Both the position numbers and the translations under genes were made by a program. Shown one piece after another: positions 1 to 51,925 of a stretch of 64,000 nucleotides of DNA. The stretch is from a virus (lineage: Duplodnaviria; Heunggongvirae; Uroviricota; Caudoviricetes), in IMG/VR virus record IMGVR_UViG_3300028887_000068, positions 1 to 64,000 of that record; one strand, 5' to 3'. A model generated the notes under the pieces. The model saw nothing but the letters and a program-made list of their open reading frames with translations. It did no database searches and was not told where the DNA came from. Each line of letters starts with the position of its first letter. The stretch's first letter is position 1.

Positions 1-1437
1 GTTGACACAGAAGAAGATGTTGAAGAAGACAAACGCAAGGGATACATGAAACTTGCTGCTAAGAACTTCCTAGATCTTAGTAACGATGACATTATCAAGA
101 TCGTTCAACCTGTCCTCGAAGGTAACATCCGCGAAATTGTTGGTAAGATGAAGCTTAAGGATATGATTGGAGATCGCCAACAGTTCGCTAAGCTCGTATC
201 CGACAATGTTGCTCCAGATCTTCATAACATGGGTCTGAAGCTCGTATCTTTCAATGTTCAGAATTTCCGCGACGACGTGAAGGGAAACGGTACAAGTATC
301 ATTGATGATCTCGGTGCTGATAATACTGAAGCTATCCGTAAGACTGCTCAGATTGCACGCGCAAATGCTACTCGCGATATCGCTATTGCAAAAGCTGCTG
401 CAACGAATGAAGCCAACGAAGCTGAAGTTAAAGCAAATACCATTATCGCCGAACGCAACAACGCTCTCGAAATCAAGCAATCTGACCTTAAGAAAGCTGC
501 TGATACCCAGAAGGCAGTTGCTGCTAAAGCATACGAAATCGAAATTGCCAAACAGCAGAAGACGATTAACATTATCAACGCTGAAGCAGAAACTGCAAAG
601 CAGGAAAAACTCATCGACGTCCGTAAGAAAGAAGTAGATGTTACGGAACAGGAACTCGAAGCTAAGGTTACGAAACCTGCCGATGCAGCTAAGAAGGCCA
701 ATATCATCAAGGCTGAAGGTATTGCACAGGCTCGGATCATCGAAGCCGAAGCCAATAAGAAGACTGCAACTATCAACGCCGAAGCTGACTTGATTGCTAA
801 ACAGAAATATGCCGATGCCGAAAAGTACAAGGCTGAAACCGCTGCTGCTGCTGAACTTACACAGAAGCAGAAGACCGCAGATGCTGAACGCTATAACAAG
901 GAACAAGAAGCAGAAGCTCTTAAGGCTACTGCTGCTGCCGAACTTGTCAAACAACAGAAGGAATCTGAAGCTAAACAATACGATCAGACTTGCCAAGCCG
1001 AAGGTATCAAAGCTCTTGCAGCTGCTAATTTGGAATCTGCCCAAGCTGAAGCTAAGGGTATCGAAGCCAAGGGTACGGCTGAAGGTGCTGCTATTGCTGC
1101 TAAGGGTCTTGCAGAAGCAGAAGCCAAGGACAAGTTGGCAGATGCCCTCAAGAAATATGGCGAGGCAGCATTGCAAGATATGAACCTTGCAGCTGTCAAG
1201 GAACTCATTCACGTATTGCCGGATATCGCTGGCAATGTAGCAAAGCCGCTCGCTGGCGTGAAGGAAATGAAGCTCTACGGCGAGGGCAACATTTCTCAGA
1301 TGACTGGCGATATCACGAAGTCTATGATGAAAGTCATCGACGGTGTTCAGGACGCAACTGGTCTCAATGTAGGAAACTTCCTCAACAGCTTCCTCGGAGC
1401 CAAGGCTGCCCAGATCACTGCCGATAAGAAAGAATAA
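1..1437 (+). CDS. SPFH/band-7 flotillin-like protein (5' end outside window)
   Basis: Frame 1 is open from nt 1 (VDTEEDVEED...) to TAA at 1435-1437. The N-terminal region is band-7-like and is followed by a long Ala/Glu/Lys-rich heptad coiled-coil region, as in flotillin/YqiK proteins. Confidence 0.6.
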   Translation, partial: VDTEEDVEEDKRKGYMKLAAKNFLDLSNDDIIKIVQPVLEGNIREIVGKMKLKDMIGDRQQFAKLVSDNVAPDLHNMGLKLVSFNVQNFRDDVKGNGTSIIDDLGADNTEAIRKTAQIARANATRDIAIAKAAATNEANEAEVKANTIIAERNNALEIKQSDLKKAADTQKAVAAKAYEIEIAKQQKTINIINAEAETAKQEKLIDVRKKEVDVTEQELEAKVTKPADAAKKANIIKAEGIAQARIIEAEANKKTATINAEADLIAKQKYADAEKYKAETAAAAELTQKQKTADAERYNKEQEAEALKATAAAELVKQQKESEAKQYDQTCQAEGIKALAAANLESAQAEAKGIEAKGTAEGAAIAAKGLAEAEAKDKLADALKKYGEAALQDMNLAAVKELIHVLPDIAGNVAKPLAGVKEMKLYGEGNISQMTGDITKSMMKVIDGVQDATGLNVGNFLNSFLGAKAAQITADKKE

Positions 1438-8476: not shown

Positions 8477-8785
8477 TTAGAAATTCCATTCTAAAAGCCA
8501 AGTATCTGTCACTTCGTCTACCCACTCCTTTCCCTCCAAGCGAGGACTGACGAATGACGTGATCTTAGTAAGCTTATAACCAGCTTCTTCCATCTCTGCC
8601 TTGAACTTTAGGCTAGAAGAAGATCTCACTTCTATGGAAGTATGGGTCAGACCCATCTTTATAGCCATAATGATGAACTTCTCAAGCTTATCTTTCAGTC
8701 TAGAGTAGTATTCGCTGTAGAACGGATAATCGTCTTTAACAGCTCTCATTTTCTCAATGGAGCGCAGATCTTTTGGGCTTAGCAT
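8477..8785 (-). CDS. hypothetical protein
   Basis: 102-aa ORF downstream of nadE on the minus strand. Confidence 0.5.
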   Translation of the reverse strand: MLSPKDLRSIEKMRAVKDDYPFYSEYYSRLKDKLEKFIIMAIKMGLTHTSIEVRSSSSLKFKAEMEEAGYKLTKITSFVSPRLEGKEWVDEVTDTWLLEWNF

Positions 8786-8807
8786 TTTCTCTCCTTCTTA
8801 TGGGAAT

Positions 8808-8839
8808 CACAAAATAAAAGGGCTACCATTTGGTAGCCC
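8808..8839 (-). terminator. terminator-like hairpin after nadE
   Basis: gggctaccatttggtagccc hairpin. On the minus strand it is followed by a T-rich run. Confidence 0.5.
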
Positions 8840-8861
8840 TCTTTACTCGTGCTTTGATGTT

Positions 8862-9629
8862 TCAACCAGAGAAGGCAGGAAGATATGCCGGAATATTAAG
8901 CATCTTGCGCTTGTATTCCATACGCTTCATGCGATCTGCCAGAGCAGTACGAACACCTTCGGACAATTCGTTAATGCCACCACGGATGAACGTATCAATC
9001 TGTTTGTAGGTGAACCCCATTTTCTCTTCATCAGACTGGCCAGTCAAGCCATCAGACGGAGTCTTGAGAACAAGGTCTTCAGGCAACCCAAGAGCGATAC
9101 CGAGTTCACGGACTTCGGTCTTGGTCAAATTAGCCATCGGAGCGATGCTTCCCATGTCAGCCCACATGGTGAAATATCCTATCATGAGCTCAGAGAGATT
9201 TGCAGTACAGATGATCAGAGAATCGCCAATAGTCTGTGCGATAGCAGTTTCAACAGCCGTTCTTACATGCGGAGTGATATTGGTATTAGCTTGGACGCTG
9301 AGATCTTGCTTAGCCGGAAGAGCAAGCCTTACAGTCGCCTTAGCCGCAAGCACAGCCATAGCAAGGTTAGCTTCGATAGTGTTGACAACGCCAGCAGCCT
9401 TGGCAGCACGCTTTGCGTCATCGAGGTCAACTTGAACACCGTTAGGCATGAAGATACCGTAAACATGTTCCGGGCCGACAGCCAAGGTAGCAACCTTAGC
9501 AAGAACGGTGGAGTCGGCACCGCCACTGATACCGAGAACGAGGTTCTTCATTCCGGCATCTGCAACGACCTGTGCCGTCCAGTCTACGATTTCTTTTTTG
9601 ACGATGTTAATGTCGTGAATCTTTTTCAT
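8862..9629 (-). CDS. nadE: NH3-dependent NAD+ synthetase
   Basis: PP-loop signature LVLGISGGADSTVLA (SGGxDS). Its roughly 255-aa length is typical of NadE. Confidence 0.85.
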   Translation of the reverse strand: MKKIHDINIVKKEIVDWTAQVVADAGMKNLVLGISGGADSTVLAKVATLAVGPEHVYGIFMPNGVQVDLDDAKRAAKAAGVVNTIEANLAMAVLAAKATVRLALPAKQDLSVQANTNITPHVRTAVETAIAQTIGDSLIICTANLSELMIGYFTMWADMGSIAPMANLTKTEVRELGIALGLPEDLVLKTPSDGLTGQSDEEKMGFTYKQIDTFIRGGINELSEGVRTALADRMKRMEYKRKMLNIPAYLPAFSG

Positions 9630-9645
9630 TTTTGTATACCTTTGG

Positions 9646-10215
9646 TTATTCGATCACTTCAATTTGTTGTGCACGGGCAACAGCCTTAGCTGCTTCATGA
9701 CCCGGTTGTTCACCATGTTCGTTAGGTAATCCTGCCGAGCAGGTGCTGTCCCAAATGATTCGCTTGTCTGGGAACATAGCTCTGAGGATAATAAGGTTGG
9801 CAATAACACAGATTTCAGAAACGAACCCGATGACGGTAATAGTTTCCGCTTGCTCAAGAACTCTACGCATTTCTGGGAGATAGTTTTGGTCATCTTTTTC
9901 AAGTCCCCAATTAAGGCAGCCGAAAGTGTGCTTTTCTACAATCTGAATGAGCTTCGGCTTTGCAGCTCTATAGATGCTCGGTTCGATTTCGTAGCCCTGA
10001 TCCTTAGCATAGACATCACAATGTTCCGGGATATGCTGGCCTTCGAGCGAGAACTTGTAGTAACGACCATCGTGCAAGTCTTCGGTCAGGATGACAGGCC
10101 CCTGATGGTTTTCGATTTTCTTAACGGCCTTTTCCAATACCGCTTGTGCCAACGGATTAGCGAGTCTTCCGTTGATGAAGTCTTTGTCAAAGTCAATACC
10201 AATAAGTGTATTCAT
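9646..10215 (-). CDS. pncA: nicotinamidase / isochorismatase-family cysteine hydrolase
   Basis: IGIDFDKDF N-terminal Asp motif and an EICVIANL catalytic-Cys motif. ATG at 10215 follows AGGTATAC. It lies within the NAD operon. Confidence 0.7.
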   Translation of the reverse strand: MNTLIGIDFDKDFINGRLANPLAQAVLEKAVKKIENHQGPVILTEDLHDGRYYKFSLEGQHIPEHCDVYAKDQGYEIEPSIYRAAKPKLIQIVEKHTFGCLNWGLEKDDQNYLPEMRRVLEQAETITVIGFVSEICVIANLIILRAMFPDKRIIWDSTCSAGLPNEHGEQPGHEAAKAVARAQQIEVIE

Positions 10216-10222
10216 TGTATAC

Positions 10223-11521
10223 CTACTTCTTGTGGGGGTTGAGATCAGATTTGATGAAATCATCAATAATCTTTGTATGGTGGAAAGCGAGGACTGGCAG
10301 ATCGTAGATGGGGAACCATCTAGCTTCAGCCGCATCATCGCCAGCTGTAATCATATCTTCTTCGTCAGGATCAATCTTTACAAAGAAGGCAGTATCGACA
10401 ATCCGCATACGAGGATCGAACTTGCAGCTGTATGTCTTGATCTGATGGAAGTTGTTAGAGCAGAAATGCAATCCAACTTCTTCAGAGAATTCTCTAGCTG
10501 CGGTAGATTCAAGGCTTGGATCGTTTTCGACATCAAAGAATCCACCCGGAAGAGCCCAGTAGTCTTTATAAGGGTAATCCTTACGGCGGACAAGGAGGAC
10601 TTCTTCGGACTGGTTCACAGCCACGATGTCAACAGTCGCAGAAGGCTCGCCATATGCCTTCATGATAGAATCTTTGAGCATAGCCATACCAGCCGTAGCA
10701 AAGACAGCTGAGCCAGTCTGTTCATTGGCAGGTTCATTGACCTTTATACAATTATCCTTGTATAAAGCCAGTGCTTGATTACCAGCATCGTTGTAGATTT
10801 CGTCAAAGTGTTCGCGGATATACTTGACAGTATTCTTCTTATACTTTTCAAGGAAGATTTCTTCGCCTCGTCTGTATTCCTGAAGACGGTGCTGATGATA
10901 CAGAGATCTGGAAAGAATGTAGTTAGCTGCTGCATCAGGCAATCCGAGTGCCTTGAACTTCTCCGGATGATTTTCAAGGATGAATGGATGCAGTTCAAGC
11001 AATTCACGGATTTTAGTAGAGGAAACCTTCTTTGTAAGCAGGGAGTCGTCACCGAGCTCAAGCCTGATAAACGGCTTGGATTGCGGAACTTTCTTCCAGA
11101 GTGCTTCAAGAGTATCGTATTTTCTAAATCCACGTTCTGCTACGATAAAGTTAGCGTAGTGCATGAGAGCATTGCTGTTACGCCATTTTCCATTGGCGAT
11201 GTTCATTGCCTGATCCATCCCGACAACGATATAAGCATCTTCGATGTTGAGCTTAAGCGTTTCCGTAATATAGTCATACATACGGGCATCTTGTTCCGCA
11301 ATTCTGAAGGACTTATGAAGCGGAGCAAAAGCTCTTCTTACCATTTCCATGCGGTCTTCGTAAGAGGAATTATATACCTTTTCGTCATTGCAGGAAATGA
11401 GAACGATGGCTTCAAAGCCATCAGTAAAGTTCTTGAAGGCATAGTCCAATGCTTTTTCAAATACGGCTCTGTGACCGATAGTGACAGGGTCAAATGCCCC
11501 GCCATAGATCAATGTCCTCAT
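10223..11521 (-). CDS. bifunctional nicotinamide/nicotinate mononucleotide adenylyltransferase with C-terminal Nudix hydrolase
   Basis: N-terminus has the nucleotidyltransferase motif GGAFDPVTIGH (HxGH). C-terminus has the Nudix box GGFFDVENDPSLESTAAREFSEEVGL. ATG at 11521 follows GGAGGG and overlaps the pncB stop (TAATG). Confidence 0.8.
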   Translation of the reverse strand: MRTLIYGGAFDPVTIGHRAVFEKALDYAFKNFTDGFEAIVLISCNDEKVYNSSYEDRMEMVRRAFAPLHKSFRIAEQDARMYDYITETLKLNIEDAYIVVGMDQAMNIANGKWRNSNALMHYANFIVAERGFRKYDTLEALWKKVPQSKPFIRLELGDDSLLTKKVSSTKIRELLELHPFILENHPEKFKALGLPDAAANYILSRSLYHQHRLQEYRRGEEIFLEKYKKNTVKYIREHFDEIYNDAGNQALALYKDNCIKVNEPANEQTGSAVFATAGMAMLKDSIMKAYGEPSATVDIVAVNQSEEVLLVRRKDYPYKDYWALPGGFFDVENDPSLESTAAREFSEEVGLHFCSNNFHQIKTYSCKFDPRMRIVDTAFFVKIDPDEEDMITAGDDAAEARWFPIYDLPVLAFHHTKIIDDFIKSDLNPHKK

Positions 11522-12801
11522 TAATAAGCCCTCCACAAGCGTTGCGAGTTATGTTTCTCAATGATAGTCTTAACGAATTCCGTGATTGCTTCCGGATTAT
11601 CCTTAAGATAAGCAAGCTCGCTCAGAGGCTGATAGTTAAAGTCATTCTTGACTCTGATGATCTGTTCTTCGTCGTCATGGTTGCACTTGCCAGCAACATC
11701 GCTCAGCTTGATAGCCGAGATACCGTTACCGCTATAGAGCTTCATGACCATATTGAGAGGATCACCACCAACGGTATTGGTGAGGAATGTGCCTTGTCCG
11801 ATGGCAACATTGATAACATGAGCAAACATCTTAACGAGCATTACCACATCATCATCCTTCAAACTGTCGCTAAAGCAAGCGGTCTTAGTAAGAGGATTGA
11901 TCTTGAGCTGCTTGTAGAATTCGATAAGGATCTGGCACCAGAGTACTGGATCGCCACTGTCATGGCGAACACCGTCGGCGAGCTTGGCATAGAGCAAGTC
12001 GAAGTCTTCGAGGAAGGCCTTGAAACCATAGGTGTCGCTGAGGAAGATACCGAGATTGCCACGATATTCACGAAGCCATGCATCGAAGGTTGCACGCTGC
12101 GATTCCGAGAGACGGAACTTAGAAATCGTCTGGAGAAGCATGAACATCTGATGGGCCATTGTACCCATGTCCTTCACGCCGTTGATCATTGCCATATAGA
12201 CATTACTTGTACCAACGAAAGCCTTGCAGTTTTCGATAAGGTACTTGACAACGAACATCTGCCAATCAAAGCTTGCACGGCGACGAGTACCGAAGTCGCT
12301 GAGAGTAAACTTGTAGCCCTCGTCGTAGATCTTGTTATACTTGTCTACGGCTTCCTTCAAACGCTTCTTGCCGAATTCATAATCGGTAGGCTGGTCAATC
12401 ATCCACAGTTCCTGAATGATCTCAAGGACGTAGATTTCAAACCAATGGTCACGTTCTTCAAGACCATTAGTCCATACTCCAAGGACATCACCATCACGGG
12501 CGACATGGATGTCTTCACGAGGGAGACGGAAGTCACGGAGCCAACGAATGTAGTCTTCGCTGTACCAATTGTGACTTGCGATAAAGGAGAGTTCATCTTC
12601 TCCGTGCTTAAGTTCACAGAGATGATTGAGCTGATACTCAAGTTCATCTTTCAGGTAAGCAGTCTTCTTACCTTGCGAACGGATTGTCAACTTCCACTGC
12701 GAACGTTCGTTCGGGAACTGGTGATGAAGTACCTGACCCATCGAATACTTGTAAGCATCCGTGTCGGTAAGGTGATTGACGATGCACTTATAGTGACCCA
12801 T
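11521..12801 (-). CDS. pncB: nicotinate phosphoribosyltransferase
   Basis: LTDTDAYKYSMGQ, DFGTRRR, FVGTSN and GVRHDSGDP align motif-by-motif with E. coli PncB (LLDTDAYKLHM, DFGTRRR, FVGTSN, GLRHDSGDP). Confidence 0.85.
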   Translation of the reverse strand: MGHYKCIVNHLTDTDAYKYSMGQVLHHQFPNERSQWKLTIRSQGKKTAYLKDELEYQLNHLCELKHGEDELSFIASHNWYSEDYIRWLRDFRLPREDIHVARDGDVLGVWTNGLEERDHWFEIYVLEIIQELWMIDQPTDYEFGKKRLKEAVDKYNKIYDEGYKFTLSDFGTRRRASFDWQMFVVKYLIENCKAFVGTSNVYMAMINGVKDMGTMAHQMFMLLQTISKFRLSESQRATFDAWLREYRGNLGIFLSDTYGFKAFLEDFDLLYAKLADGVRHDSGDPVLWCQILIEFYKQLKINPLTKTACFSDSLKDDDVVMLVKMFAHVINVAIGQGTFLTNTVGGDPLNMVMKLYSGNGISAIKLSDVAGKCNHDDEEQIIRVKNDFNYQPLSELAYLKDNPEAITEFVKTIIEKHNSQRLWRAY

Positions 12802-12804
12802 GTT

Positions 12805-12990
12805 TTACCTCGTTGAGAGTTTTAGGAGTGTATAGAGAACCATTAGGAACAGTATCACAGGTGTTCCCAGATAGATTATTACTGCAATGAGTATAATCTT
12901 CCACATTGGTAAATGTCTCTTAGGATTTACCAATAGCATAAACAATACTATAAAGAATGTAGCTAGAATAGTCCATGTTATCAGAATCAT
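12805..12990 (-). CDS. small two-TM membrane protein
   Basis: 61 aa, almost entirely hydrophobic. Its ATG overlaps the upstream stop (ATGA). It sits immediately upstream of pncB. Confidence 0.4.
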   Translation of the reverse strand: MILITWTILATFFIVLFMLLVNPKRHLPMWKIILIAVIIYLGTPVILFLMVLYTLLKLSTR

Positions 12991-13094
12991 CCACCGCCTC
13001 CGGTGATGACCATATACACCACCACGGCAATGATTCCAATGAAAGCTAGACAGCCAATACAGCTCTTGCCTTCAGAGGTTGTTTGTTTTTCCAT
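12987..13094 (-). CDS. 35-aa membrane peptide
   Basis: MEKQTTSEGKSCIGCLAFIGIIAVVVYMVITGGGG. AAAGGA RBS. Its stop overlaps the next ATG. Not in the ORF track because it is under 60 aa. Confidence 0.3.
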   Translation of the reverse strand: MEKQTTSEGKSCIGCLAFIGIIAVVVYMVITGGGG

Positions 13095-13149: not shown

Positions 13150-13187
13150 AAAATAATATACGGCTTTACTTAGAGTAAAGCCGTATG
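13150..13187 (-). terminator. terminator for gene 13310-14326, adjacent to promoter-like motif
   Basis: Hairpin cggctttacttagagtaaagccg, followed on the minus strand by TATATTATTTTTT. The minus-strand motif GTATATTA (13154-13161) lies 60 nt upstream of the peptide ATG. Confidence 0.45.
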
Positions 13188-13309: not shown

Positions 13310-14326
13310 TTAGTACGGGATTGCTTGGATTGAGCCGTCTTCGTTAACTTGAGGCGGTTGCGGATCGGACGATGCCGGAGTAGACACACGCTGAGTGGTT
13401 TCGCCATCGCTATGAGCATGCTCCAATGCTCCAAGAGAATCCAAGGCAAATGTCATGTTAGACGGATCCTCTTCAGATCTTGGCGCTACTGTGGCTATCA
13501 CACGAATCGCATCAGAAACAGATTGTGGCATGTGTCTGCTAAACATTGTATCAAGCCGATCGTGGATTTCTCTCACAAGACGTTCAGTATGGACTCGGTT
13601 AAGAGCATTGTCTCTAATAACGCTCTCAGCTTCTCTGAAAACAAGATCAGAACTAAGGGTTTGATTGGCTGTCCTGAAGGTATGCTCGTTGTTTGCAGTA
13701 TCCAGCGTAGTATTCCGCAAGATGTTATTGCTTAAACTCACCCAGTTGTTCATAAGAGAATATGCCGTTGCGTAATCGTAAGACACTTCCGGGCTGAGAG
13801 TACGTCCGTTTCTAGATTCAGTTAAGTCAGTTACAGGAACGGTGATTTGTTGCAGACTTTCTTCTGTTGCTCGAATGTCCGGATCTTCATCACGCAAGTC
13901 TTGCCATTCAGCAGTAACGTTATGGCGGTCTTCTTCTTCGGTTATATCCGCCACCTGATTTGCACATGGAGCTAAAATCACCTTCTTCAGAGTCTCTTCC
14001 AGAATTCCGAAAGCGTATTTACTTATATCACCATCCGCGAAATGCTTTGCATAAGCATTCTCGCTCTTAGTTTTAATGGGGCCATTATCAGATTCTGGAT
14101 AGAAGACAACAGAACCCATGTCAGTTAATAACACACGGTTGTAGATATAGCAATCATTCGTGAATCTTTGAAACTCGATGGGATAATGGTGTTCACCGGA
14201 AACGTTTAATATGTTTCCGCTAATCTGATCAAACTCGGGTATAAGACATGCAAAGGACTTATTACTGGGTCTATCTATGAAACAAGAGACAAACCCGATA
14301 GTATTAAGAATTGTTAGACCAGTCAT
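13310..14326 (-). CDS. hypothetical protein (possible extended member of paralog family)
   Basis: 338-aa ORF. N-terminus LTILNTIGFVS resembles the family N-motif. The C-terminal half is low-complexity S/T/D-rich. Confidence 0.5.
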   Translation of the reverse strand: MTGLTILNTIGFVSCFIDRPSNKSFACLIPEFDQISGNILNVSGEHHYPIEFQRFTNDCYIYNRVLLTDMGSVVFYPESDNGPIKTKSENAYAKHFADGDISKYAFGILEETLKKVILAPCANQVADITEEEDRHNVTAEWQDLRDEDPDIRATEESLQQITVPVTDLTESRNGRTLSPEVSYDYATAYSLMNNWVSLSNNILRNTTLDTANNEHTFRTANQTLSSDLVFREAESVIRDNALNRVHTERLVREIHDRLDTMFSRHMPQSVSDAIRVIATVAPRSEEDPSNMTFALDSLGALEHAHSDGETTQRVSTPASSDPQPPQVNEDGSIQAIPY

Positions 14327-14736
14327 TCCATTACTCCTACCTTGTATTTTCTAGCTATTTCGATTGCGCCAAAGGCTTGTTTCTTTAGTGCCTCAACACG
14401 ATTACGAGTTAAAAGTCTATGGCGATCTTCTTTCGTATTGCTCCATCTTCGTGTTGCCGGATCATAGATAGACATAGAAGTTACAGACCAGATAGTAGGC
14501 TCGTACATGCTCTTATCTTTTCTGGACACCTCTGAGAAGACAAATGTGGCGTTGTTGGTATGGACATCAACCGTATAGCAATCAAGACCGGGTATTCCCC
14601 ACATCTCTAGAGCAAGCAAATCTAGCATACGCAAGATTTCGAAATGCTCTTCTTTTGTTGCCATACGGTCTTCTTGTCTTCTACAACGCTCCATGTCCTC
14701 TTTGAGGTTAACTACGCTGTCATCAAGCTCGCTCAT
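14323..14736 (-). CDS. paralog family A member 1
   Basis: N-motif LLALEMWGIPG. C-motif AFGAIEIARKYK. Confidence 0.55.
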   Translation of the reverse strand: MSELDDSVVNLKEDMERCRRQEDRMATKEEHFEILRMLDLLALEMWGIPGLDCYTVDVHTNNATFVFSEVSRKDKSMYEPTIWSVTSMSIYDPATRRWSNTKEDRHRLLTRNRVEALKKQAFGAIEIARKYKVGVME

Positions 14737-15136
14737 GGCCTATACCAACTTCTTTCGCAAGCTTCTCTAGAAATCCGATGTTCCACTTCATTATACTATT
14801 GGGTGTTTCGTCATTTAGACTCTTGCGAACAAAATCATATTTCCAGTCTGTGTTTAAATGAATAAAGTCCGGTTCTTTTACTATCTCCGAATACGAATAC
14901 AGACGGAGCATACCCTCGCTACTTTCCCGAACTAAGAGCATAGCAGTATTGGTGCCAGGCCCGAAACCAGAGAAGGCGAAAGCCGCATCTTCCTTTCTCT
15001 CGAAGCAAACTCTATCGTTCATTATAAATCTAGTATGCCGCCCTATATCTTCAGCGCTTATAGCATTATTGAATCTTCTATGCAACAACTCAGCGCCCAT
15101 AGTTGCTACTAGTGTTCCAAATCCTGATGGACTCAT
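14723..15136 (-). CDS. paralog family A member 2
   Basis: N-motif LVATMGAEL. C-motif NIGFLEKLAKEV. Confidence 0.55.
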   Translation of the reverse strand: MSPSGFGTLVATMGAELLHRRFNNAISAEDIGRHTRFIMNDRVCFERKEDAAFAFSGFGPGTNTAMLLVRESSEGMLRLYSYSEIVKEPDFIHLNTDWKYDFVRKSLNDETPNSIMKWNIGFLEKLAKEVGIGHERA

Positions 15137-15153
15137 TAAACCTCCCTGTTAGT

Positions 15154-15549
15154 TTATAAAAGTTCATATCCTTCATTCGTTAATCTACTGCCCCCATTTG
15201 TACGATTCTCCATTAAGCCTTGCACAAGGACAATCAATTTACTTCCGCAGACCAAATGTAACGGCTCAAGTTTTAGATCACGGCTTCGATTACACCATAG
15301 ACAGCAGCCCTCGTCTTCGCCACCGTTCCAAGTAAAATTGGTGTAAGTGCTTATCTTAATGCCGTCCTTGCTCTTCCAGAGATTTACAGCTGCGGATCCT
15401 AACCCTCCAACAAAAGTGAAATCAAAGTCAATGAAATTCAATCTGTTAAGTGAAGATTCCACGTCACGAACACCTTCTCCGACGGTATCATAGCTATCTA
15501 AGAATAATCCTAAAGTCAAAAGAACGTGAGATACAAACTCAGTCGTCAT
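15154..15549 (-). CDS. paralog family A member 3 (degenerate C-terminus)
   Basis: ATG at 15549 follows AAGGAG. N-motif HVLLTLGLFLD. No clear FGxxE motif. Confidence 0.45.
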   Translation of the reverse strand: MTTEFVSHVLLTLGLFLDSYDTVGEGVRDVESSLNRLNFIDFDFTFVGGLGSAAVNLWKSKDGIKISTYTNFTWNGGEDEGCCLWCNRSRDLKLEPLHLVCGSKLIVLVQGLMENRTNGGSRLTNEGYELL

Positions 15550-15973
15550 CGTCTTCTCCTTCGTTCTTTGAGAAGTACATAAGCATCTCAGCATTGCCTA
15601 GTACAAGATTCATGAGCTTTTCGTCGGACAATTCAGCGATGTTGTGGTCACAGATATCGTGATCTCCAGACATAAGATTACCGAGTCTGCTCATGCGTGA
15701 ATAAGAAGAAAGAGTGATTACGGTATGGTGTGTCCCGTCGGCAATAACTTTATTCGACGTATCAAACAAGAAAGCAGAGTCTATGAAACCATACAACATT
15801 CCTCTCATAAAAGAAGCGGTATGTGTCTTCACATGATTCTCTATCTGTCCCGCTATGATCTCCACAGCATCCTCGTCTTCGGTTATACCGATTCTCGTTC
15901 TTACGTAACCCATAGATTCAAAGTCATACCCGAGAGATAGGAGTATCATGCTAATGTACTTGGTGTGTCTCAT
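15539..15973 (-). CDS. paralog family A member 4
   Basis: N-motif LLSLGYDF. C-motif LVLGNAEMLMYF. Acidic tail. Confidence 0.55.
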   Translation of the reverse strand: MRHTKYISMILLSLGYDFESMGYVRTRIGITEDEDAVEIIAGQIENHVKTHTASFMRGMLYGFIDSAFLFDTSNKVIADGTHHTVITLSSYSRMSRLGNLMSGDHDICDHNIAELSDEKLMNLVLGNAEMLMYFSKNEGEDDDD

Positions 15974-16334
15974 GGTACTTCCTCCCGTAATACAGTAATG
16001 TTTCAGCTTGCCCGAACAATACCCTCATCAATTTCTCAATGCGTATTTCCATAACGGTTTCATTATTGAAGTCATAATTGTTCTTTACAAAATTGTTGGT
16101 GCTGAATTCACGCGAATATGTGTTCAGCTTATGGGTACCGCTTGGAACATAGGCTATGACGACTGTATCCGTAACCCCGAAGATCCTACCGTTGAAGTGG
16201 CAACGCTTACAGTCCAACATGCTTCTTGCGACTCGCCTCAAGCTTTCTTCCATACTTGCTTCTGTGACGGTGCCTTCATATGTATTGTGAAGGCCCATCA
16301 GCAGCATCATTCTGTAACATCTAAGAGGCATCAT
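15951..16334 (-). CDS. paralog family A member 5
   Basis: N-motif LLMGLHNT. C-motif VLFGQAETLLYY. Confidence 0.55.
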   Translation of the reverse strand: MMPLRCYRMMLLMGLHNTYEGTVTEASMEESLRRVARSMLDCKRCHFNGRIFGVTDTVVIAYVPSGTHKLNTYSREFSTNNFVKNNYDFNNETVMEIRIEKLMRVLFGQAETLLYYGRKYHETHQVH

Positions 16335-16707
16335 TGTCTAATCCTCTCCTTATTATCATAAGAGATTCTAGATTTCCGAATAAGCACCGTACGAGATCAA
16401 CTTCTTGCATGTCCTTTATCGGTTCTTCTCTAGCATCCCCATCACGGGAGAGCAAAGTCGTAGAACCAGATGTAGAACGTCTAGAAAATGTCTCTATCCG
16501 GTATCCGTATTCTTTGTGCTTAGTGATGAAAACTGCCGTGTCGTCATGATAGGCGATAAACTTGAATCCAAAGATCGTACGCTTCATTGCCAATAATGAC
16601 ACGACTCTGGCAGTATCCATAACACTACTGATACTGTTCGCTGGCAGACCTAAGCGATGCTCCTGTCCTAGAGTGAGGAGAATAATTACGCTATCGAGAA
16701 GCTGCAT
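16321..16707 (-). CDS. paralog family A member 6
   Basis: Starts MQLLDSV. N-motif LLTLGQEH. C-motif CLFGNLESLMII. Confidence 0.55.
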   Translation of the reverse strand: MQLLDSVIILLTLGQEHRLGLPANSISSVMDTARVVSLLAMKRTIFGFKFIAYHDDTAVFITKHKEYGYRIETFSRRSTSGSTTLLSRDGDAREEPIKDMQEVDLVRCLFGNLESLMIIRRGLDNDAS

Positions 16708-17098
16708 GGGCTATTCTTCTCCCTACGGACAAGGTGCATTCTATATTTCCAAACATGTATCTAGTGAAATCCTCTTTCGTCATGTAGTATATATTAACGC
16801 CTTTGGCATCATCTTTACAAGAGAGCATGAAATAAGCTCCACTAGTAGTGAATCTCGAAAAGGTCTTTAAAAGGAAGCCCTCATGTCGGTAGTCTTTAAT
16901 CCTTTCTCTGATGATGTAAGCGGTTATATCGCTCACCCCGTATATGTTAGGCGAAAACCCAAGGCATGTGAAGTCATTGAACCATGTGATTAAGCCACTA
17001 GCGATAGAATTAACACCGCTAGTATTGATCAATATGTGTCCTGCACCATTGTCTAGCCCCAGAGAGAGCATCGTGCTTATGCTATCGAGCAGCCGCAT
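16691..17098 (-). CDS. paralog family A member 7
   Basis: Internal ATG at 17098 (MRLLDSIS, parallel to MQLLDSV of member 6) follows GGGGAA. C-motif YMFGNIECTLSV. Confidence 0.5.
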   Translation of the reverse strand: MRLLDSISTMLSLGLDNGAGHILINTSGVNSIASGLITWFNDFTCLGFSPNIYGVSDITAYIIRERIKDYRHEGFLLKTFSRFTTSGAYFMLSCKDDAKGVNIYYMTKEDFTRYMFGNIECTLSVGRRIAHAASR

Positions 17099-17471
17099 TA
17101 AAGTTTCCCCGATGGTTTTGCCAAAGCCGTTCAATATAGCCGAAGACAAACTTGCAGTATTCATAGCTTTCAATGCCATTCAGCAACTTGTGCCTAAAGA
17201 AATCTCTAGGAATCTTCCTGTTGCCGATCAAGTCTCTGTCGGCAGATACATAGAAAGAATCACCGTCCCTTTCGAACATGAAGACTTCATCATAGTGTCT
17301 GCCGTCTAAAAGCAGCTCAGATGAGAAATATCCAGTGTGGTTATCGTCAAACCATTGCTGAACCCTCTCATCAGCAGCGGAGACCGTAGGCCCAATCTCT
17401 TCACCGCCAAGAGGGAATCCTGCTCCATTAGTCAATAATACTTTCCAACAAAATGTTTTAAATAAAGCCAT
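17082..17471 (-). CDS. paralog family A member 8
   Basis: N-motif LLTNGAGFPLGGEEIG. C-motif FVFGYIERLWQN. Confidence 0.55.
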   Translation of the reverse strand: MALFKTFCWKVLLTNGAGFPLGGEEIGPTVSAADERVQQWFDDNHTGYFSSELLLDGRHYDEVFMFERDGDSFYVSADRDLIGNRKIPRDFFRHKLLNGIESYEYCKFVFGYIERLWQNHRGNFNAAAR

Positions 17472-17835
17472 AAGTCGTTCTCCTGTGTTTATCTAAAAGG
17501 TATTCATCAAACGCGAATATGAGCCTTACAAAATCCGTTTCATCAATTCTGGAAAAGCTGGTGACACGATGAGCATCGTCCACTTCTCTGCCTAGACTGC
17601 CGTCGTCGATCTCCATGAAGAAATCGCACTTTTTGCTGTCATAGTACAATGACAAAACTGATCTTATACAAAGGTCAAACATCACAGCGGAAAAGTATCC
17701 TTGAGAGTCACTGTTAAACCAGTTCATCACAAAATCGAAGGCTCCGGTGGCTGTTTCACCGACTTCTCCAGCGGTATACGGGAAACCGAATCCGCTTGTT
17801 AACAAAATCTTAAATGCTGTTTCAGGCTGCAACAT
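17458..17835 (-). CDS. paralog family A member 9
   Basis: N-motif LLTSGFGFPYTAGEVG (closest to member 8). C-motif LIFAFDEYLLDK. Confidence 0.55.
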   Translation of the reverse strand: MLQPETAFKILLTSGFGFPYTAGEVGETATGAFDFVMNWFNSDSQGYFSAVMFDLCIRSVLSLYYDSKKCDFFMEIDDGSLGREVDDAHRVTSFSRIDETDFVRLIFAFDEYLLDKHRRTTYGFI

Positions 17836-18301
17836 TTGGTAACATCCCCAGCTTACGGCTGTATTTCAAAAGCTCCTCAACTTGTCCAAAGAGGATCTTA
17901 GAAAACTTATCCCGTTCTCTTACGTTGAAGTTCTCGCCATGATCTCCGAAAACAAAGTCATCATCGAAACCAAAGTCCTCGTTACCACTGCTGTTAACAA
18001 GAACGCCATTTAGAATTTCGAATCGCGAATATGTAGAAACAGCATCGCCTACTTCGTACTCTTCCGGTTCGTAGTAGTTTACGAGCGTCGAACTTGGGAA
18101 GCCATACAGACTTCCGCAAAGATCAACATTAGACTCATCCTCCATGATCCTATTCACGACCGCTGAAGCACGATCCACAAATTTGTTAAGATCAACTTCA
18201 TCACCACTGTCAACATACTCTAAGATGGTTTCATCATCAACATCGATACCGAGAACAGCGGAAGAGTAGTAAATATGGTCAAATATACCGTCGTTTGTCA
18301 T
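17822..18301 (-). CDS. paralog family A member 10
   Basis: ATG at 18301 follows AGGAGG. N-motif SSAVLGIDV. C-motif ILFGQVEELLKY. Confidence 0.5.
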   Translation of the reverse strand: MTNDGIFDHIYYSSAVLGIDVDDETILEYVDSGDEVDLNKFVDRASAVVNRIMEDESNVDLCGSLYGFPSSTLVNYYEPEEYEVGDAVSTYSRFEILNGVLVNSSGNEDFGFDDDFVFGDHGENFNVRERDKFSKILFGQVEELLKYSRKLGMLPNVAA

Positions 18302-18302
18302 T

Positions 18303-18758
18303 TTAACCTCCTGACAAGTAAACATCTTCTGGAAGAACTAATGGAACGATTTCCGGATCTCTCGCTGCATGAGCCCAGTGTATCTTCATATCTCCCATCT
18401 CTTGCTCCAATGCTCCAATCATGGTTGTGATAACCATGTTTAGGGTTTCATTGATACTTTTTTGGTCATTGATATTGTTGGCTACTATGCGCGGTTTGTA
18501 GTGTCTCACTCCGTCTACATAGATAAGCCTTCGTATAGAGATTACACAATCGTCTTCGCTCCTATACAAGTCCAAAGGATTTCCAAAGAGAAGCGTAACG
18601 TCATAGCTACAATGTCTGTTAACAGCTATATTATTACGGAAATTATTGGCGCATTGCCGAATGGGATGAGAGTCAGTTTCACATGCAAATGCTGCCATCG
18701 TCTTGGCTATAATATAGGCATGATGCATGACTGTTACAGCTATTTTAAAGCTCATCAT
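18303..18758 (-). CDS. paralog family A member 11 (divergent)
   Basis: C-terminal MIGALEQEM. The N-terminus is divergent and Cys/His-rich. Confidence 0.45.
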   Translation of the reverse strand: MMSFKIAVTVMHHAYIIAKTMAAFACETDSHPIRQCANNFRNNIAVNRHCSYDVTLLFGNPLDLYRSEDDCVISIRRLIYVDGVRHYKPRIVANNINDQKSINETLNMVITTMIGALEQEMGDMKIHWAHAARDPEIVPLVLPEDVYLSGG

Positions 18759-19155
18759 AAACCTCGATAATTTGGGGTGTGAGACCTCGTTTTCTGTACT
18801 CTAGGGCTACATCTTCTAATAGCCCTATGCACAGCTTGGCTAGATCTGTCTTTTTCATGACAGTGATTCTACGTTCAACGTAGTCATCGTGTTCCGTACT
18901 GTGATTGAGCTTCATAAACTGGCCACATGCAACAAGGGCAGTATAAGTGCTGATCTTATGATCATCAATCATGAAAGCATAGTAATCCATGAAGAATGGC
19001 TCTTCCGGAAGAACTACGAAGTTAATGCAGCGTGTACTTGCCAAGACTTCGAGTCTGATGCTCTCTTCAGGGGCAGTAGTCATACCCATAGCAAAGAGAG
19101 CTTTACATGCCTCCAGCTTTCCTTTAAGATATTCAGTCATAATCCTCCTTTGCAT
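18745..19155 (-). CDS. paralog family A member 12
   Basis: N-motif ALFAMGMTT. C-motif LCIGLLEDVALEY. Confidence 0.55.
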   Translation of the reverse strand: MQRRIMTEYLKGKLEACKALFAMGMTTAPEESIRLEVLASTRCINFVVLPEEPFFMDYYAFMIDDHKISTYTALVACGQFMKLNHSTEHDDYVERRITVMKKTDLAKLCIGLLEDVALEYRKRGLTPQIIEVYDEL

Positions 19156-19548
19156 CTAAGATATAATATCCCAAAGAAAACCGTTCTTTCTGTCCAACTT
19201 TGCTATGCCTTCCATTAGCCCAATGATAAGCATCACTATCCTTCTCTTATCGAGATGCTCAAGCTGCTGATAGCGTATGTCCTGTGTTCCTTGTATAAAA
19301 TTGTACATCTGATAAAGAACAGTGCCGTGGTCAAGCTGTGGCATACACGCTTTTGCCTCAATTTGCGTTGCTGTGCAAAAGGCAAGATTGGATACAGTTA
19401 TTACTGTATTGTTAAAGATGTAGTCACGGTCTACGAAAAAGGTAAGATGACCGCTGCTTTTTAATCCCATAGACTGAGCAGCGCTCTCTATGTATTGATA
19501 ATTCGCTACACAAAGAGCACCATTTCTCATAGCATCTTCGGTATTCAA
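19156..19548 (-). CDS. paralog family A member 13
   Basis: N-motif AAQSMGLKS. C-motif LIIGLMEGIAKL. Confidence 0.55.
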   Translation of the reverse strand: MNTEDAMRNGALCVANYQYIESAAQSMGLKSSGHLTFFVDRDYIFNNTVITVSNLAFCTATQIEAKACMPQLDHGTVLYQMYNFIQGTQDIRYQQLEHLDKRRIVMLIIGLMEGIAKLDRKNGFLWDIIS

Positions 19549-19988
19549 AACGGTATATCCCCCTCTGGAATATTCCCATTCCAGTTAATGTCTTTTAGGC
19601 GGTCTATCTCAGCTAATCTTTCCATGAAGCCAAACAGTCGCTTGCTTATTTTCTCTATCGTAAGTTCAGAGTAATGAGCATTGAGAAAGTCGCCTTGGCC
19701 CTTTTCCAGATGAAAAAGCAGACTCGGGTATCTTTCATCAATGTTATCTGCAAAGTCAGTATACGAATTGAGGTATGGGCCACTTATAAGAAACGCAGGA
19801 TTCCTCAGTTCCAGATATCCCCTAGTAGGCAAAAAGGGAATGATTTGTCCCATTACGTTAGTAAGACCCATAGACTCGCATAGACGAATACAGACTCTAG
19901 ACATATCTTCGGCGTCACAGAAATCAGTCTCCTCTGCGAGTGGCTCATGCACATATTCGTACTGCGTTAAGTATGTGGTGAAATCCAT
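19545..19988 (-). CDS. paralog family A member 14
   Basis: N-motif LCESMGLTN. C-motif RLFGFMERLAEI. Confidence 0.55.
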   Translation of the reverse strand: MDFTTYLTQYEYVHEPLAEETDFCDAEDMSRVCIRLCESMGLTNVMGQIIPFLPTRGYLELRNPAFLISGPYLNSYTDFADNIDERYPSLLFHLEKGQGDFLNAHYSELTIEKISKRLFGFMERLAEIDRLKDINWNGNIPEGDIPF

Positions 19989-20383
19989 AGGTTCCTGTCT
20001 ATCTTGTTGAATTCGTGTTTAAAGACTTCTTCTAACGCGCCAAAGGCTGTAGCTAGAAGTTCGCTCGGTTCTACGGATTCCATTTCGAAGCAGTCATAGT
20101 CGTCGATTTGAGATGCTGTTTCATACCTAGGTCTATACAAGCCGAGACGTACCTCTGGCTGTGTCGTTTCTACTTTCTTGAAGTTTAGTTCTGTAAAAGA
20201 CCAGAGATAGTCCTGATCCTCTATGAAGACAATATCACCGGGAAAGGTAGTATTGAGCTGTATGCCGTATGATATCGCCACCTCAGAATATTCGTCTTCG
20301 TCTCTGTTAAAGGTTCTCTCGTCAAAGAGAAGTGATTTAACGGTTGAATCAAAATTGTAAAATTCCATCAGAGAATTCTCCAT
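19967..20383 (-). CDS. paralog family A member 15
   Basis: N-motif AISYGIQL. C-motif TAFGALEEVFKH. Confidence 0.55.
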   Translation of the reverse strand: MENSLMEFYNFDSTVKSLLFDERTFNRDEDEYSEVAISYGIQLNTTFPGDIVFIEDQDYLWSFTELNFKKVETTQPEVRLGLYRPRYETASQIDDYDCFEMESVEPSELLATAFGALEEVFKHEFNKIDRNLWISPHT

Positions 20384-20730
20384 TGTGAGCGTATGTTTCT
20401 CACGGTTTCCATCATGCCATATACATACCAGAGCATATCGTCAATGTTATCTGGAACGCAATAGTCCGGTATCTTCAATCCAAACACAGATCTCCATATG
20501 GAATTGGTTTGAAGAATGAACGAGTCATCAGACCAATCGGTAAATGTAAAGTCAAAGAAGCTTCCATCATTGAGAGTATTGGGGTCTTCGCCACTAGCGC
20601 GAAGACCGCTTTCATCGTCTCCGAAGAATGTAAGATCGCTCCAACTATCGTCGTCATATCCAATACTTCTTAGGAAGGCATAGCAAACGCCCCTTTCATT
20701 TCTAGTCATTACTCCTCCAGTTAGTTGCAA
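20368..20730 (-). CDS. paralog family A member 16 (start may be the ATG about 21 nt downstream)
   Basis: N-motif FLRSIGYDD. C-motif YVYGMMETVRNI. Confidence 0.5.
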   Translation of the reverse strand: MQLTGGVMTRNERGVCYAFLRSIGYDDDSWSDLTFFGDDESGLRASGEDPNTLNDGSFFDFTFTDWSDDSFILQTNSIWRSVFGLKIPDYCVPDNIDDMLWYVYGMMETVRNIRSQWRIL

Positions 20731-21028
20731 CAGCTTTCACAACTTCTGCAATACCAAACAGGTATGCTATTAAAACATCATTACTAATGGCGCAGCAGAA
20801 AGCTTGAGCTGTCCTTTTATCTCTTATAACATGCGAACTTGTAACAATGCGCAAACCACCCAAGCCGTCAGACAGGCCGAAGTCTTCATTTATCACGTCA
20901 CGACGCTCGTCCATAAAGAACATATAGTCGTCTGTGATGCCATTATCTTCAAATCCCATTATCTTTAGTATTTCATACGGTCTGAAGTCAGTTGACTTCT
21001 CTTGTACGGACTCTCTGCTAAAACTCAT
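20702..21028 (-). CDS. paralog family A member 17
   Basis: Internal ATG at 21028 forms an ATGA overlap with the upstream stop and follows GAGGGT. N-motif ILKIMGFED. C-motif YLFGIAEVVKAV. The longer ORF-track start at 21127 would overlap the neighbour by about 100 nt. Confidence 0.45.
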   Translation of the reverse strand: MSFSRESVQEKSTDFRPYEILKIMGFEDNGITDDYMFFMDERRDVINEDFGLSDGLGGLRIVTSSHVIRDKRTAQAFCCAISNDVLIAYLFGIAEVVKAVATNWRSND

Positions 21029-21384
21029 TCTACCCTCACGGGAAGATAAACTCCACCAAAAGTCCTTAACAACTCGAAGTATCTTTTCAGTCTCTTTTCG
21101 AGAATTCCGAACATAGCCGGTGTACATTCTTCTATACGCTTCTTTCGTATAATGCTTCTCGGAGAGTCATCTACACAAGTATACTTCTCCGGAAGAACAT
21201 TGACGTTGTAATAGAAGTGCATTGTCTTGCAGTATATATCCATGCCAACATTAAGTCGTAATTCTGCATTAAACTCGTCACGAAGACTTCCAAATGCAGC
21301 GAACGAGTTATCAAATCTGACTAGTTCAAAGCCAAGTGACAACAAGGCTCTGAACCCAAATTTTTCTGCGTCGCTTCCTGTCAA
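21025..21384 (-). CDS. paralog family A member 18
   Basis: N-motif LLSLGFEL. C-motif AMFGILEKRLKR. Confidence 0.55.
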   Translation of the reverse strand: MTGSDAEKFGFRALLSLGFELVRFDNSFAAFGSLRDEFNAELRLNVGMDIYCKTMHFYYNVNVLPEKYTCVDDSPRSIIRKKRIEECTPAMFGILEKRLKRYFELLRTFGGVYLPVRVE

Positions 21385-21716
21385 GGATTCCTCCTTATTC
21401 GTTCTTCCTGTCTCTTTTCTATCACTCCATAGATAGCAATAGCCAGAGATCGGAGTTCTTCCGTTCCTTTTATCTTGTAATACGGCTTATACTTTTCTTG
21501 TTTTCCAAATTCTTCATTGAGCCATACAGTATGCTTAAATAAATCTTTGCTAATGCCAGTAAAGTAATAATTAAATTCATACATGCCGTCTACTGGCGGA
21601 CGAAACTGTAACGCATCACCCGCAAAGAGAAGGCCACTACCTGCTACTGGCACAAAACCCATAGCCGCAAAGATCTTTATTATGTCTGCTGGCCCATGAG
21701 CGCTCATTATAATCAT
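21381..21716 (-). CDS. paralog family A member 19
   Basis: N-motif FAAMGFVP. C-motif AIYGVIEKRQEE. Confidence 0.55.
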   Translation of the reverse strand: MIIMSAHGPADIIKIFAAMGFVPVAGSGLLFAGDALQFRPPVDGMYEFNYYFTGISKDLFKHTVWLNEEFGKQEKYKPYYKIKGTEELRSLAIAIYGVIEKRQEERIRRNP

Positions 21717-22024
21717 AGGTCTCTCCTGAACGGCTTGTTCATTCGCACTTCGAGCAAGCTGAAGAAGATAAAGACTATCTCTTCTTCATTAGTTCCTACG
21801 AACTGTGTTACGTTGCCATGAAGCTTAAAGGCTTCCTTAGCGCCTTCGCCAAAATCCGGTCTATACTTTCCGGACTGATTGCTGAATATAAACTCCACTA
21901 GACGGTCACTGGAGTATTCTTCAAGCACTTTCAAGCGAAGATCATCGTTTCCTGGTGTCATAGCTGTCATGTATCCCATCGAGTGGAACATAGAAACAAA
22001 GTCAGCTCCATTTATTCGTCCCAT
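21713..22024 (-). CDS. paralog family A member 20
   Basis: N-motif FHSMGYMT. C-motif IFFSLLEVRMNK. Confidence 0.5.
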   Translation of the reverse strand: MGRINGADFVSMFHSMGYMTAMTPGNDDLRLKVLEEYSSDRLVEFIFSNQSGKYRPDFGEGAKEAFKLHGNVTQFVGTNEEEIVFIFFSLLEVRMNKPFRRDL

Positions 22025-22992: not shown

Positions 22993-23066
22993 ACATTTCT
23001 CCTTGTATACTCTTTATTATATACTATGAAAAAATAAAGCTCATGGACGAATCCATGAGCAATTCT

Positions 23067-23495: not shown

Positions 23496-23544
23496 TTTTC
23501 TCCTTTTTATTTTTTATTTTTAATAATACTTCAGAAAAAAGTCG

Positions 23545-51857: not shown

Positions 51858-51925
51858 CCTCTTGCATCTAATGGTGCAAGGGGGAGTATTTTATAAAGGT
51901 GGATCCAAGATCCACCTTTTATTTT
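51858..51925 (+). terminator. tandem terminator hairpins
   Basis: ccttgcatctaatggtgcaagg, then aggtggatccaagatccacct followed by tttatttt. Confidence 0.6.

Follow-up and report, generated by a model that had tools for sequence, protein, structure and literature searches.

Positions 1 to 64,000 of the IMG/VR virus record IMGVR_UViG_3300028887_000068, a stretch of 64,000 nucleotides referred to here as the window, carry an operon with four genes for the metabolism of nicotinamide adenine dinucleotide (NAD+). These encode a nicotinate phosphoribosyltransferase (PRTase) of the PncB type, a protein in which a NadD-type adenylyltransferase is fused to a Nudix domain, a PncA-like nicotinamidase and the NAD synthetase NadE. 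We consider it probable that the operon gives a jumbo phage, through the predicted activities of these proteins, its own deamidated (Preiss-Handler) salvage of NAD+ from nicotinamide, and this pathway assignment is well supported by sequence comparison and structure prediction.

In the proposed route, PncA would hydrolyse nicotinamide to nicotinate and NH3, and PncB would join nicotinate to phosphoribosyl pyrophosphate (PRPP), with ATP, to give nicotinate mononucleotide (NaMN). The NadD-type domain would adenylylate NaMN to nicotinate adenine dinucleotide (NaAD), which NadE would convert to NAD+ with NH3 and ATP. The fused Nudix domain would most likely split ADP-ribose (ADPR) into AMP and ribose-5-phosphate, a step that would dispose of the other product of NAD+-cleaving enzymes (NADases) and feed host PRPP synthesis. 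Because the nicotinamidase sits in the operon, the route would start from an NADase product itself.

The window also encodes an RNA polymerase beta subunit of the multisubunit phiKZ/PBS1 type (51899-56542; about 30% identity to Listeria LPJP1, PBS1 and staphylococcal jumbo phages), several virion proteins and the anaerobic ribonucleotide reductase NrdD. Proteins identical to its PncB and its fusion protein were found on a contig of 242,489 bp. On sequence evidence, the window is that of an uncultured jumbo phage. No match was returned when 50,697 phage records were searched with the operon by megablast, and any kinship of the phage to deposited genomes is distant.

Operon structure and enzyme identities

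A transcription unit of six open reading frames (ORFs) runs along the minus strand from 13186 to 8816 of the window and is bounded at both ends by hairpins, as read from the sequence and from a hairpin scan (Table 1). Its ORFs overlap or stand 3-16 nt apart. The PncB gene and the fusion gene meet in a TAATG overlap, the ATG of which is the start of the fusion; the gap from the fusion gene to the pncA-like gene is 7 nt and that from the pncA-like gene to nadE is 16 nt, all as read from the sequence. The closing hairpin (8843-8816), with its T-run, begins 19 nt past the nadE stop. These tight or overlapping junctions and the two hairpins bear out an earlier interpretation made from the letters alone (the sequence-only reading), which had placed four co-directional genes in one phage operon at 8862-13094; the upper coordinate reached 13094 because two small ORFs open the unit there. 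For the enzyme assignments that follow, the family E-values exclude chance matches on statistical grounds.

PncB scored 380.5 bits against the NCBIfam model NF003704 (cut-off 379, leaving 1.5 bits to spare) and 313.9 bits against TIGR01514 (cut-off 269.55). It matched the Pfam domains NAPRTase_N and NAPRTase and did not match the NAMPT N-domain. Its best solved relative is the nicotinate PRTase 1yir (1.7e-66, residues 6-388), in which LGTMAHEWLM aligns with MGTMAHQMFM of the phage protein, so that the GTMAH histidine is kept. In enteric PncB, this histidine is the site of ATP-dependent autophosphorylation. All eight NCBIfam matches are nicotinate PRTases, the best at 9.4e-114, whereas the phage NAMPT family phrog_448 was matched at 1e-15; the nearest cellular homologues, at about 40% identity, are likewise named nicotinate PRTases. 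The enzyme is thus of the PncB type, as first proposed, and not NAMPT or NadV, judged on family scores rather than on a phylogeny.

NadE passed the curated cut-off of TIGR00552 (162.6 bits, cut-off 63.65), matched Pfam NAD_synthase over residues 12-243 (6e-45) and has the PP-loop S35-G-G-A-D-S40, which confirms its earlier call as NadE with the SGGxDS motif; it is a bona fide single-domain NAD synthetase. The best solved relative is 2e18 (5.8e-29), and the matches in the PDB are mostly annotated as NH3-dependent; the protein lacks a glutaminase (nitrilase-like amidotransferase) domain.

The fusion protein matched Pfam CTP_transf_like (4e-14) and NUDIX (PF00293; 3.6e-17, 63.1 bits, cut-off 21.1). 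It consists of an adenylyltransferase domain (residues 1 to about 200), a helical linker and a Nudix domain (residues about 290-425), and the linker holds a lineage-specific insertion of about 55 residues (about 235-290). The N-terminal domain carries the nucleotidyltransferase motifs GGAFDPVTIGH (with T14-I-G-H17) and SSTKIR (S167-S168-T-K-I-R172), and in an alignment of 34 homologues G7, D11, P12, H17, S167, S168 and R172 were invariant or nearly so. The family profile matched NadD structures full-length, namely 5llt (1.2e-17, positions 3-200) and 2h29 (1.7e-15), and also 1kam and 1k4k. An AlphaFold2 (AF2) model of the protein was obtained with a predicted local distance difference test (pLDDT) score of 89.5. 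With Foldseek, its N-terminal domain gave template modelling (TM) scores, normalised to the target, of 0.72-0.75 to 5llt, 3e27, 5deo and 2qtm, and its fold resembles NaMN adenylyltransferases including 1yul. The top matches of the whole model were 2qjo and 2qjt, and the architecture of an adenylyltransferase followed by a COG1051-type Nudix domain holds. By hidden Markov model, profile and predicted fold, the N-terminal domain is NadD-type, which fits a deamidated route that ends in NadE.

Two other identities of this domain were considered and rejected. NadM or NatV was set aside since the corresponding models, structures and proteins reach the Nudix part only: the PRK05379 NadM-Nudix models cover residues about 295-427 at 38-63 bits (cut-offs 346-449), the alignment of solved NadM-Nudix chains is confined to the Nudix part, and NatV-like phage proteins in GenBank cover residues about 280-430. 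Phosphopantetheine adenylyltransferase (PPAT), which came first in a single-sequence PDB search (residues 5-88), was rejected because the PPAT matches end at about residue 65 and those to NadD are full-length. The fusion of a nicotinamide mononucleotide (NMN) adenylyltransferase (NMNAT) to Nudix named in the sequence-only reading is therefore correct in its two domains, but its motif is TIGH and not HxGH, and its first domain is NadD-type and not NadM-type.

In the second domain, the Nudix core R343-E344-F-S-E347-E348-V-G-L is intact, with R343, E344, E347 and E348 invariant in the 34 homologues. The nearest relatives of this domain are the ADPR-binding domains of NrtR, the structure 2fml and the ADPR-pyrophosphatase domains of NadM-Nudix enzymes.

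The true start of the PncA-like protein is the ATG at 10215, which gives 189 residues, and an ORF of 230 residues is an overlong call. The triad D8, K95 and C136 and the metal-site residues D46, H48 and H65 were invariant across the nine homologues that were aligned. In the comparison with Pyrococcus horikoshii PncA (1ilw), D8 corresponds to D10 and C136 to the catalytic cysteine region, and D46, H48 and H65 fall, with an identical spacing of 15 residues, on D52, H54 and H71. The motif DxH...PxH together with Cys-Val (CV) at the catalytic cysteine has been described as a fingerprint for assigning new nicotinamidases, along with a glycine before the cis-peptide (PMC3581539). All of its elements are present and invariant here, as D46-L-H48, P63-E-H65, C136-V137 and G130 (the glycine at C-6). 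When the family profile was run against the PDB, nicotinamidases ranked first but weakly (yeast Pnc1 2h0r, 1.5e-5; 1ilw, 8e-5; 29iv, 3e-4), and the single-sequence matches were weak (E 0.045-0.58). The structures matched by the AF2 model (pLDDT 84.6) were those of nicotinamidases and of other amidohydrolases that share the fold. Sequence and model together predict a divergent nicotinamidase of the cysteine-hydrolase/isochorismatase fold; the fingerprint and triad make an unrelated isochorismatase an unlikely identity for the gene first called pncA-like.

Recurrence on viral and cellular contigs

Eight related metagenomic contigs (L001-L008) hold the four genes with their order kept, at PncA identities of 57-100%. 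In all of them the PncA-like gene lies between nadE on one side and, on the other, the fusion gene or an inserted radical-SAM gene (L004-L006). The latter, of 371 residues, stands between the fusion gene and pncA in one lineage (L004 and L005, 8886-10001; L006, 1223-2338), and in another lineage radical-SAM-like genes follow nadE (L001, 5282-6205). An apparently split fusion gene in L007, which is 98% identical, is an artefact of a scaffold gap filled with N (about 9470-9500).

Scanning IMG/VR with a single PncB sequence yielded nothing, and an alignment-based scan succeeded. By the latter, the full-length fusion was found on 23 IMG/VR viral contigs, nine of which have PncB, PncA-like and NadE genes within 7 kb, in varying order. 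Eight further IMG/VR contigs carry an unfused version, made up of an NrtR-like protein (Nudix plus winged helix), PncA, a small NMNAT, PncB and NadE. All four functions are thus held by at least 17 IMG/VR viral contigs. This co-location across divergent sequences and arrangements gives independent support to joint action of the four proteins and to a place of the isochorismatase-like protein in NAD metabolism. The presence of the unfused module on viral contigs also suggests that the fused phage enzyme and the ADPR-sensing NrtR regulators share ancestry. An example of the unfused module lies at 6971-10828 of L059, a 211-kb IMG/VR contig, with an NMNAT of 178 residues; L107, a contig of a metagenome-assembled genome (MAG) of the Lachnospiraceae, has a similar layout.

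Cellular genomes were scanned at one genome per prokaryotic species. Among the matches listed, the fused form occurred at one of 80 confirmed loci, on a 26-kb contig of a Succinivibrionaceae MAG, and the other confirmed cellular loci had the Nudix-domain match alone. Provisionally, and among these matches, the NadD-Nudix fusion appears to be largely restricted to viruses.

Alternative readings, known pathways and purpose

Observations of several kinds weigh against a phage Preiss-Handler pathway as set out above. The route spends PRPP and several ATP per NAD+ and requires free ammonia; no measured activity of phage Preiss-Handler enzymes was found in the literature searched; and sequence cannot separate a general metabolic boost from a dedicated anti-defence function. 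The remaining points concern single proteins, and each of them bears on an alternative.

The first concerns the adenylyltransferase domain, which scored 57.7 bits against the NadD model TIGR00482 over residues 10-181, under the cut-off of 112.45, and 37-39 bits against the PRK00071 models (cut-offs 150-187). It is NadD-like rather than a certified equivalog and, given this sub-cut-off score, may prefer either NaMN or NMN. The enzymes might then act in the order of Francisella, in which NadE is an NMN synthetase (NaMN to NMN) and the adenylyltransferase makes NAD+ from NMN, as in NadE*/NadM organisms. The Francisella tularensis structure 3fiu is indeed among the NadE matches (2.1e-21), and the two-domain architecture is like that of the NadM-Nudix proteins of Francisella and Synechocystis. 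We nevertheless regard this order as very unlikely, because the domain matches NaMN-preferring NadD structures, and not NadM, over its full length and because the best relatives of the phage NadE are ordinary NAD synthetases (2e18). It would alter the intermediates and not the function, the end product being unchanged.

The PncA-like protein, for its part, barely passed the Pfam threshold (PF00857, 30.3 bits, cut-off 27) and matched no NCBIfam model, and carbamoylsarcosine amidase, biuret hydrolase and NicF are also similar to it in fold. Together with the weak single-sequence PDB matches and a top fold match, 3eef, labelled as carbamoylsarcosine-amidase related, these results would suit some other cysteine amidohydrolase, in which case the operon would encode a three-step route from nicotinate, like that of Li et al. 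2024, and draw on host PncA or environmental niacin. This is unlikely in our view: invariance extends to the DxH...PxH motif with the spacing of P. horikoshii PncA, to CV, to the glycine at C-6 and to the D/K/C triad, the profile search puts nicotinamidases first, and the gene precedes nadE on each of L001-L008 and has PncB and NadE within 7 kb at 17 more viral loci. A nicotinamidase that opens the four-step route thus remains the preferred assignment.

As to the Nudix domain, alignment to 2fml showed the first glutamate of the Nudix-box GX5E replaced by proline, with an adjacent aspartate and a two-residue insertion, and non-catalytic NrtR regulators are among its nearest relatives. Instead of supplying ribose-5-phosphate, the domain could destroy ADPR-derived signals, such as the glycocyclic ADPR (gcADPR) of Thoeris, or serve as an ADPR-sensing switch for the adenylyltransferase, in the manner of NrtR. 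The closest solved relatives include the ADPR-bound NrtR domains 3gz8 and 3gz5 and the NrtR-like 2fml, and the unfused viral module contains a Nudix protein with the NrtR winged helix. The invariance of R343-E344...E347-E348 in 34 of 34 homologues argues for hydrolysis over mere sensing, and homologous NadM-Nudix domains are called ADP-ribose pyrophosphatases in PDB entries. A signalling or regulatory role is therefore rather improbable, and cleavage of ADPR would be the expected activity.

Phage pathways of this kind are already in print. From an assembly of 668 gut jumbo phages, Li et al. 2024 (Microbiome 12:268, PMC11662467) reported 174 NAD-jumbo phages, in which a salvage or Preiss-Handler pathway is complete; they described clustered pncB-nadD-nadE in Kuafu_71, mentioned phage-encoded pncA and proposed, with the express proviso that experiments were still to come, a counter-defence against NAD+ depletion of the Sir2 type. 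Their definition of a NAD-jumbo phage covers the present one, which has pncB, nadD and nadE functions within 4 kb, phage hallmark genes and, on the contig of 242,489 bp, proteins identical to its own. The claim of a distinct, undescribed deamidated solution made in the sequence-only reading consequently had to be given up, since both the jumbo-phage Preiss-Handler clusters and the counter-defence idea appear in that study (PMC11662467). Like the window, the clusters of Li et al. come from jumbo phages in animal-gut-type metagenomes and group pncB, a nadD-type gene and nadE, and the purposes proposed are the same, namely autonomous NAD+ synthesis and possible counter-defence. The two differ in that the cluster of the published text has three genes and begins at nicotinate, whereas the window operon adds an embedded nicotinamidase and starts from nicotinamide; further, the window adenylyltransferase is fused to a Nudix domain, and the term Nudix occurs 0 times in Li et al. 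(PMC11662467). We did not find a nicotinamidase embedded in such an operon, or a NadD-type adenylyltransferase-Nudix fusion, described in the literature searched, and these two features may be of modest novelty. Even if the proposed pathway is true, the advance is incremental, because the idea and the gene sets have been published.

A characterised counterpart is NAD+ reconstitution pathway 2 (NARP2) of Vibrio phage KVP40, which consists of NadV (Nampt) and NatV (Nmnat-Nudix) and was shown to restore NAD+ and to overcome Thoeris and DSR2 (Osterman et al. 2024, Lee et al. 2017). KVP40 NARP2 and NARP3 (PnuC and NadR) increase NAD+ and overcome Thoeris, DSR2 and Sir2-HerA. NARP2 resembles the window operon in its salvage from nicotinamide and PRPP and in the fusion of an adenylyltransferase to a Nudix domain of the ADPR-pyrophosphatase type. 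It is, however, an amidated route of two steps (nicotinamide to NMN to NAD+) that uses Nampt and a NadM-type domain, in contrast to the four deamidated steps via nicotinate, NaMN and NaAD, with PncB and a NadD-type domain, that are predicted here. Searches of the six operon ORFs with Pfam, NCBIfam and PHROG revealed neither the NARP1 pair, Adps (a Prs-like ADPR-PP synthetase) and Namat (Nampt-like), nor the NARP3 families PnuC and NadR. NARP1 and NARP3 are like the operon in purpose, the restoration of NAD+ by a phage, but differ in substrates and intermediates. On sequence criteria, membership in NARP1, NARP2 and NARP3 fails each time on a defining component.

In its enzyme set and chemistry, and in the tie between an ADPR-binding Nudix domain and pncA/pncB, the operon also resembles bacterial NrtR-controlled pncA-pncB(-nadE) operons. 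Unlike in these, the Nudix domain of the window is fused to an adenylyltransferase, keeps its catalytic glutamates, is without a winged helix and is encoded on a phage genome. Among deposited phages, the stop-codon-recoded gut phage Phass-1 (OQ749652, 96860-101298) has a nicotinamidase, a PRPP synthetase, a PRTase of 532 residues, an ORF of 139 residues and a NadE homologue in a row. The PRTase is annotated as NAMPT and the NadE homologue as hypothetical; because PncA and NadE lie alongside, the PRTase may act on nicotinate instead. The 735-kb phage LR756501 (425133-431475) clusters PncB, an ORF of 170 residues, NadE, a TonB-dependent receptor-like protein, an ORF of 205 residues and PnuC, and was credited with nadD only by Li et al. 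(PMC11662467). Both phages differ from the window in gene content and order, their proteins are 31-35% identical to those of the window, and the NadD-Nudix fusion was detected in neither.

The net outcome of the route would be an NAD+ pool raised or restored during infection, which would serve phage replication generally and, by analogy with NARP2 and NARP3, could blunt depletion by TIR, SIR2 and SEFIR effectors. An anti-defence role of the operon is plausible on this analogy. More tentatively, and at somewhat less than even chances, the operon may represent a fourth, deamidated route of NAD+ reconstitution that would consume both NADase products, be built around an essentially virus-specific NadD-Nudix enzyme and let gut jumbo phages evade TIR, SIR2 and SEFIR defences. 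Such a route would be insensitive to the spoiling of ADPR (by aRES making ADPR-1''-phosphate), because it needs nicotinamide alone.

It is also conceivable, if a little more doubtful, that the operon serves as an auxiliary metabolic module of general use, with no specific evolved role against NAD-depleting immunity, and supplies NAD+ to a large phage with a heavy demand for replication and repair in a niacin-rich gut. KVP40 NARP2 lifts NAD+ even in defence-free cells, ordinary infection by the jumbo phage PA5oct induces the pncA-pncB1-nadE operon of the host, and no operon gene resembles a defence inhibitor in Pfam, NCBIfam or PHROG. Li et al. likewise tie phage NAD+ synthesis to NAD-dependent ligases and repair enzymes and to complementarity with host pathways (PMC11662467). 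On the other side, a PncA start from nicotinamide and an ADPR-type Nudix domain fit the two NADase products specifically, and all phage NAD pathways that have been tested (NARP1, 2 and 3) beat NAD-depleting systems. The general and the anti-defence role are compatible with each other.

NAD+ is central to the contest between bacteria and phages, and NARP1-3 have been demonstrated experimentally. In the literature searched, none of the three uses deamidated Preiss-Handler chemistry, which has been predicted from metagenomes only, and we found there no NARP4 and no tested phage PncB pathway. The window operon is a compact, well-delimited and complete set, nicotinamidase included, that can be synthesised and tested directly. 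If the proposed role is true, the NARP series would gain a four-enzyme route, large gut phages would carry a whole vitamin-B3 salvage pathway, and biochemistry would gain a new NadD-Nudix fusion enzyme.

Feature table and genomic neighbourhood

Table 1. Features of the six-ORF unit, in order of transcription (window coordinates)
Feature	Coordinates	Strand	Length	Evidence and remarks
Terminator-like hairpin	13158..13186	-		13-bp stem with 5 GC pairs, then ATTATTTTTT; ends the upstream gene 13310-14326; 5' boundary of the operon
Small ORF, MEKQTTSEGKSCIGCLAFIGIIAVVVYMVITGGGG	12987..13094	-	35 aa	Single hydrophobic segment; first in the unit; ATGA overlap with the next ORF
Small ORF	12805..12990	-	61 aa	Two hydrophobic segments
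PncB	11521..12801	-	426 aa	NCBIfam, Pfam and 1yir
NadD-type adenylyltransferase-Nudix fusion	10223..11521	-	432 aa from ATG	Pfam, NCBIfam, profile and fold
PncA-like nicotinamidase (predicted)	9646..10215	-	189 aa	Pfam PF00857 and nicotinamidase fingerprint
NadE	8862..9629	-	255 aa	TIGR00552 and SGGADS
Intrinsic-terminator-like hairpin	8816..8843	-		12-bp stem with 6 GC pairs, AAGAGGGCTACCAAATGGTAGCCCTTTT then ATTTTGTGAT; 3' boundary of the operon

The two small ORFs that open the unit had no family match in Pfam, NCBIfam or PHROG. The first is conserved in close relatives only (97% in L007, 100% in L008 and 66% in L004 and L005) and is a called gene in L007 and L008; the second was found in no relatives but the nearest, L007 and L008, and lies outside the conserved NAD module. 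That these membrane-like ORFs form a niacin transporter was considered and rejected, as they are too small and are kept in the nearest relatives only.

Directly upstream of the operon, about 25 consecutive small genes (87-167 aa) occupy the minus strand from 14323 to 24128, and L004 and L007 have a comparable array ahead of the operon. Five of its genes were scanned against Pfam and none matched. A few weak paralogues occur within the array (for example 15539-15973, 15951-16334 and 17822-18325; 16321-16707 and 16691-17179; 20368-20709 and 20702-21127). Ten flanking genes gave no Pfam match, and no functional link to the upstream array was found.

Further away, the window encodes an SPFH/flotillin-like protein (46-1437, plus strand; Band_7 4e-11, Flot 5e-7), and a Band_7/Flot gene is also found near the operon in L004 and L005. 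A PspA/IM30-like protein (24194-24838, minus strand) matched at 1.3e-6, under the Pfam cut-off; both it and the flotillin-like protein belong to membrane-remodelling or stress families. A patatin-like phospholipase (45261-46124, minus strand; 4.4e-13) and a protein of the histidine-phosphatase superfamily (27817-28407, minus strand; 1.2e-6) are also encoded. The latter was considered as a counter-measure of the aRES type and rejected, as its distance from the operon is 15 kb and no link between the two was seen. An ORF of 1438 aa (47528-51844, plus strand), which immediately precedes the RNA polymerase beta-like gene, had no PHROG or Pfam match; by its position, it could be a highly divergent polymerase subunit.

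Long stop-free ORFs of 249-459 aa lie antisense to several genes, at 8757-9689, 10775-11524 and 11494-12816 on the plus strand and at 70-1449 on the minus strand, opposite 46-1437. Some of them outlast the true gene, and naive longest-ORF calling misassigns the strand of nadE and pncB. These antisense ORFs are shadows of the coding strand and probably arise as a by-product of codon usage.

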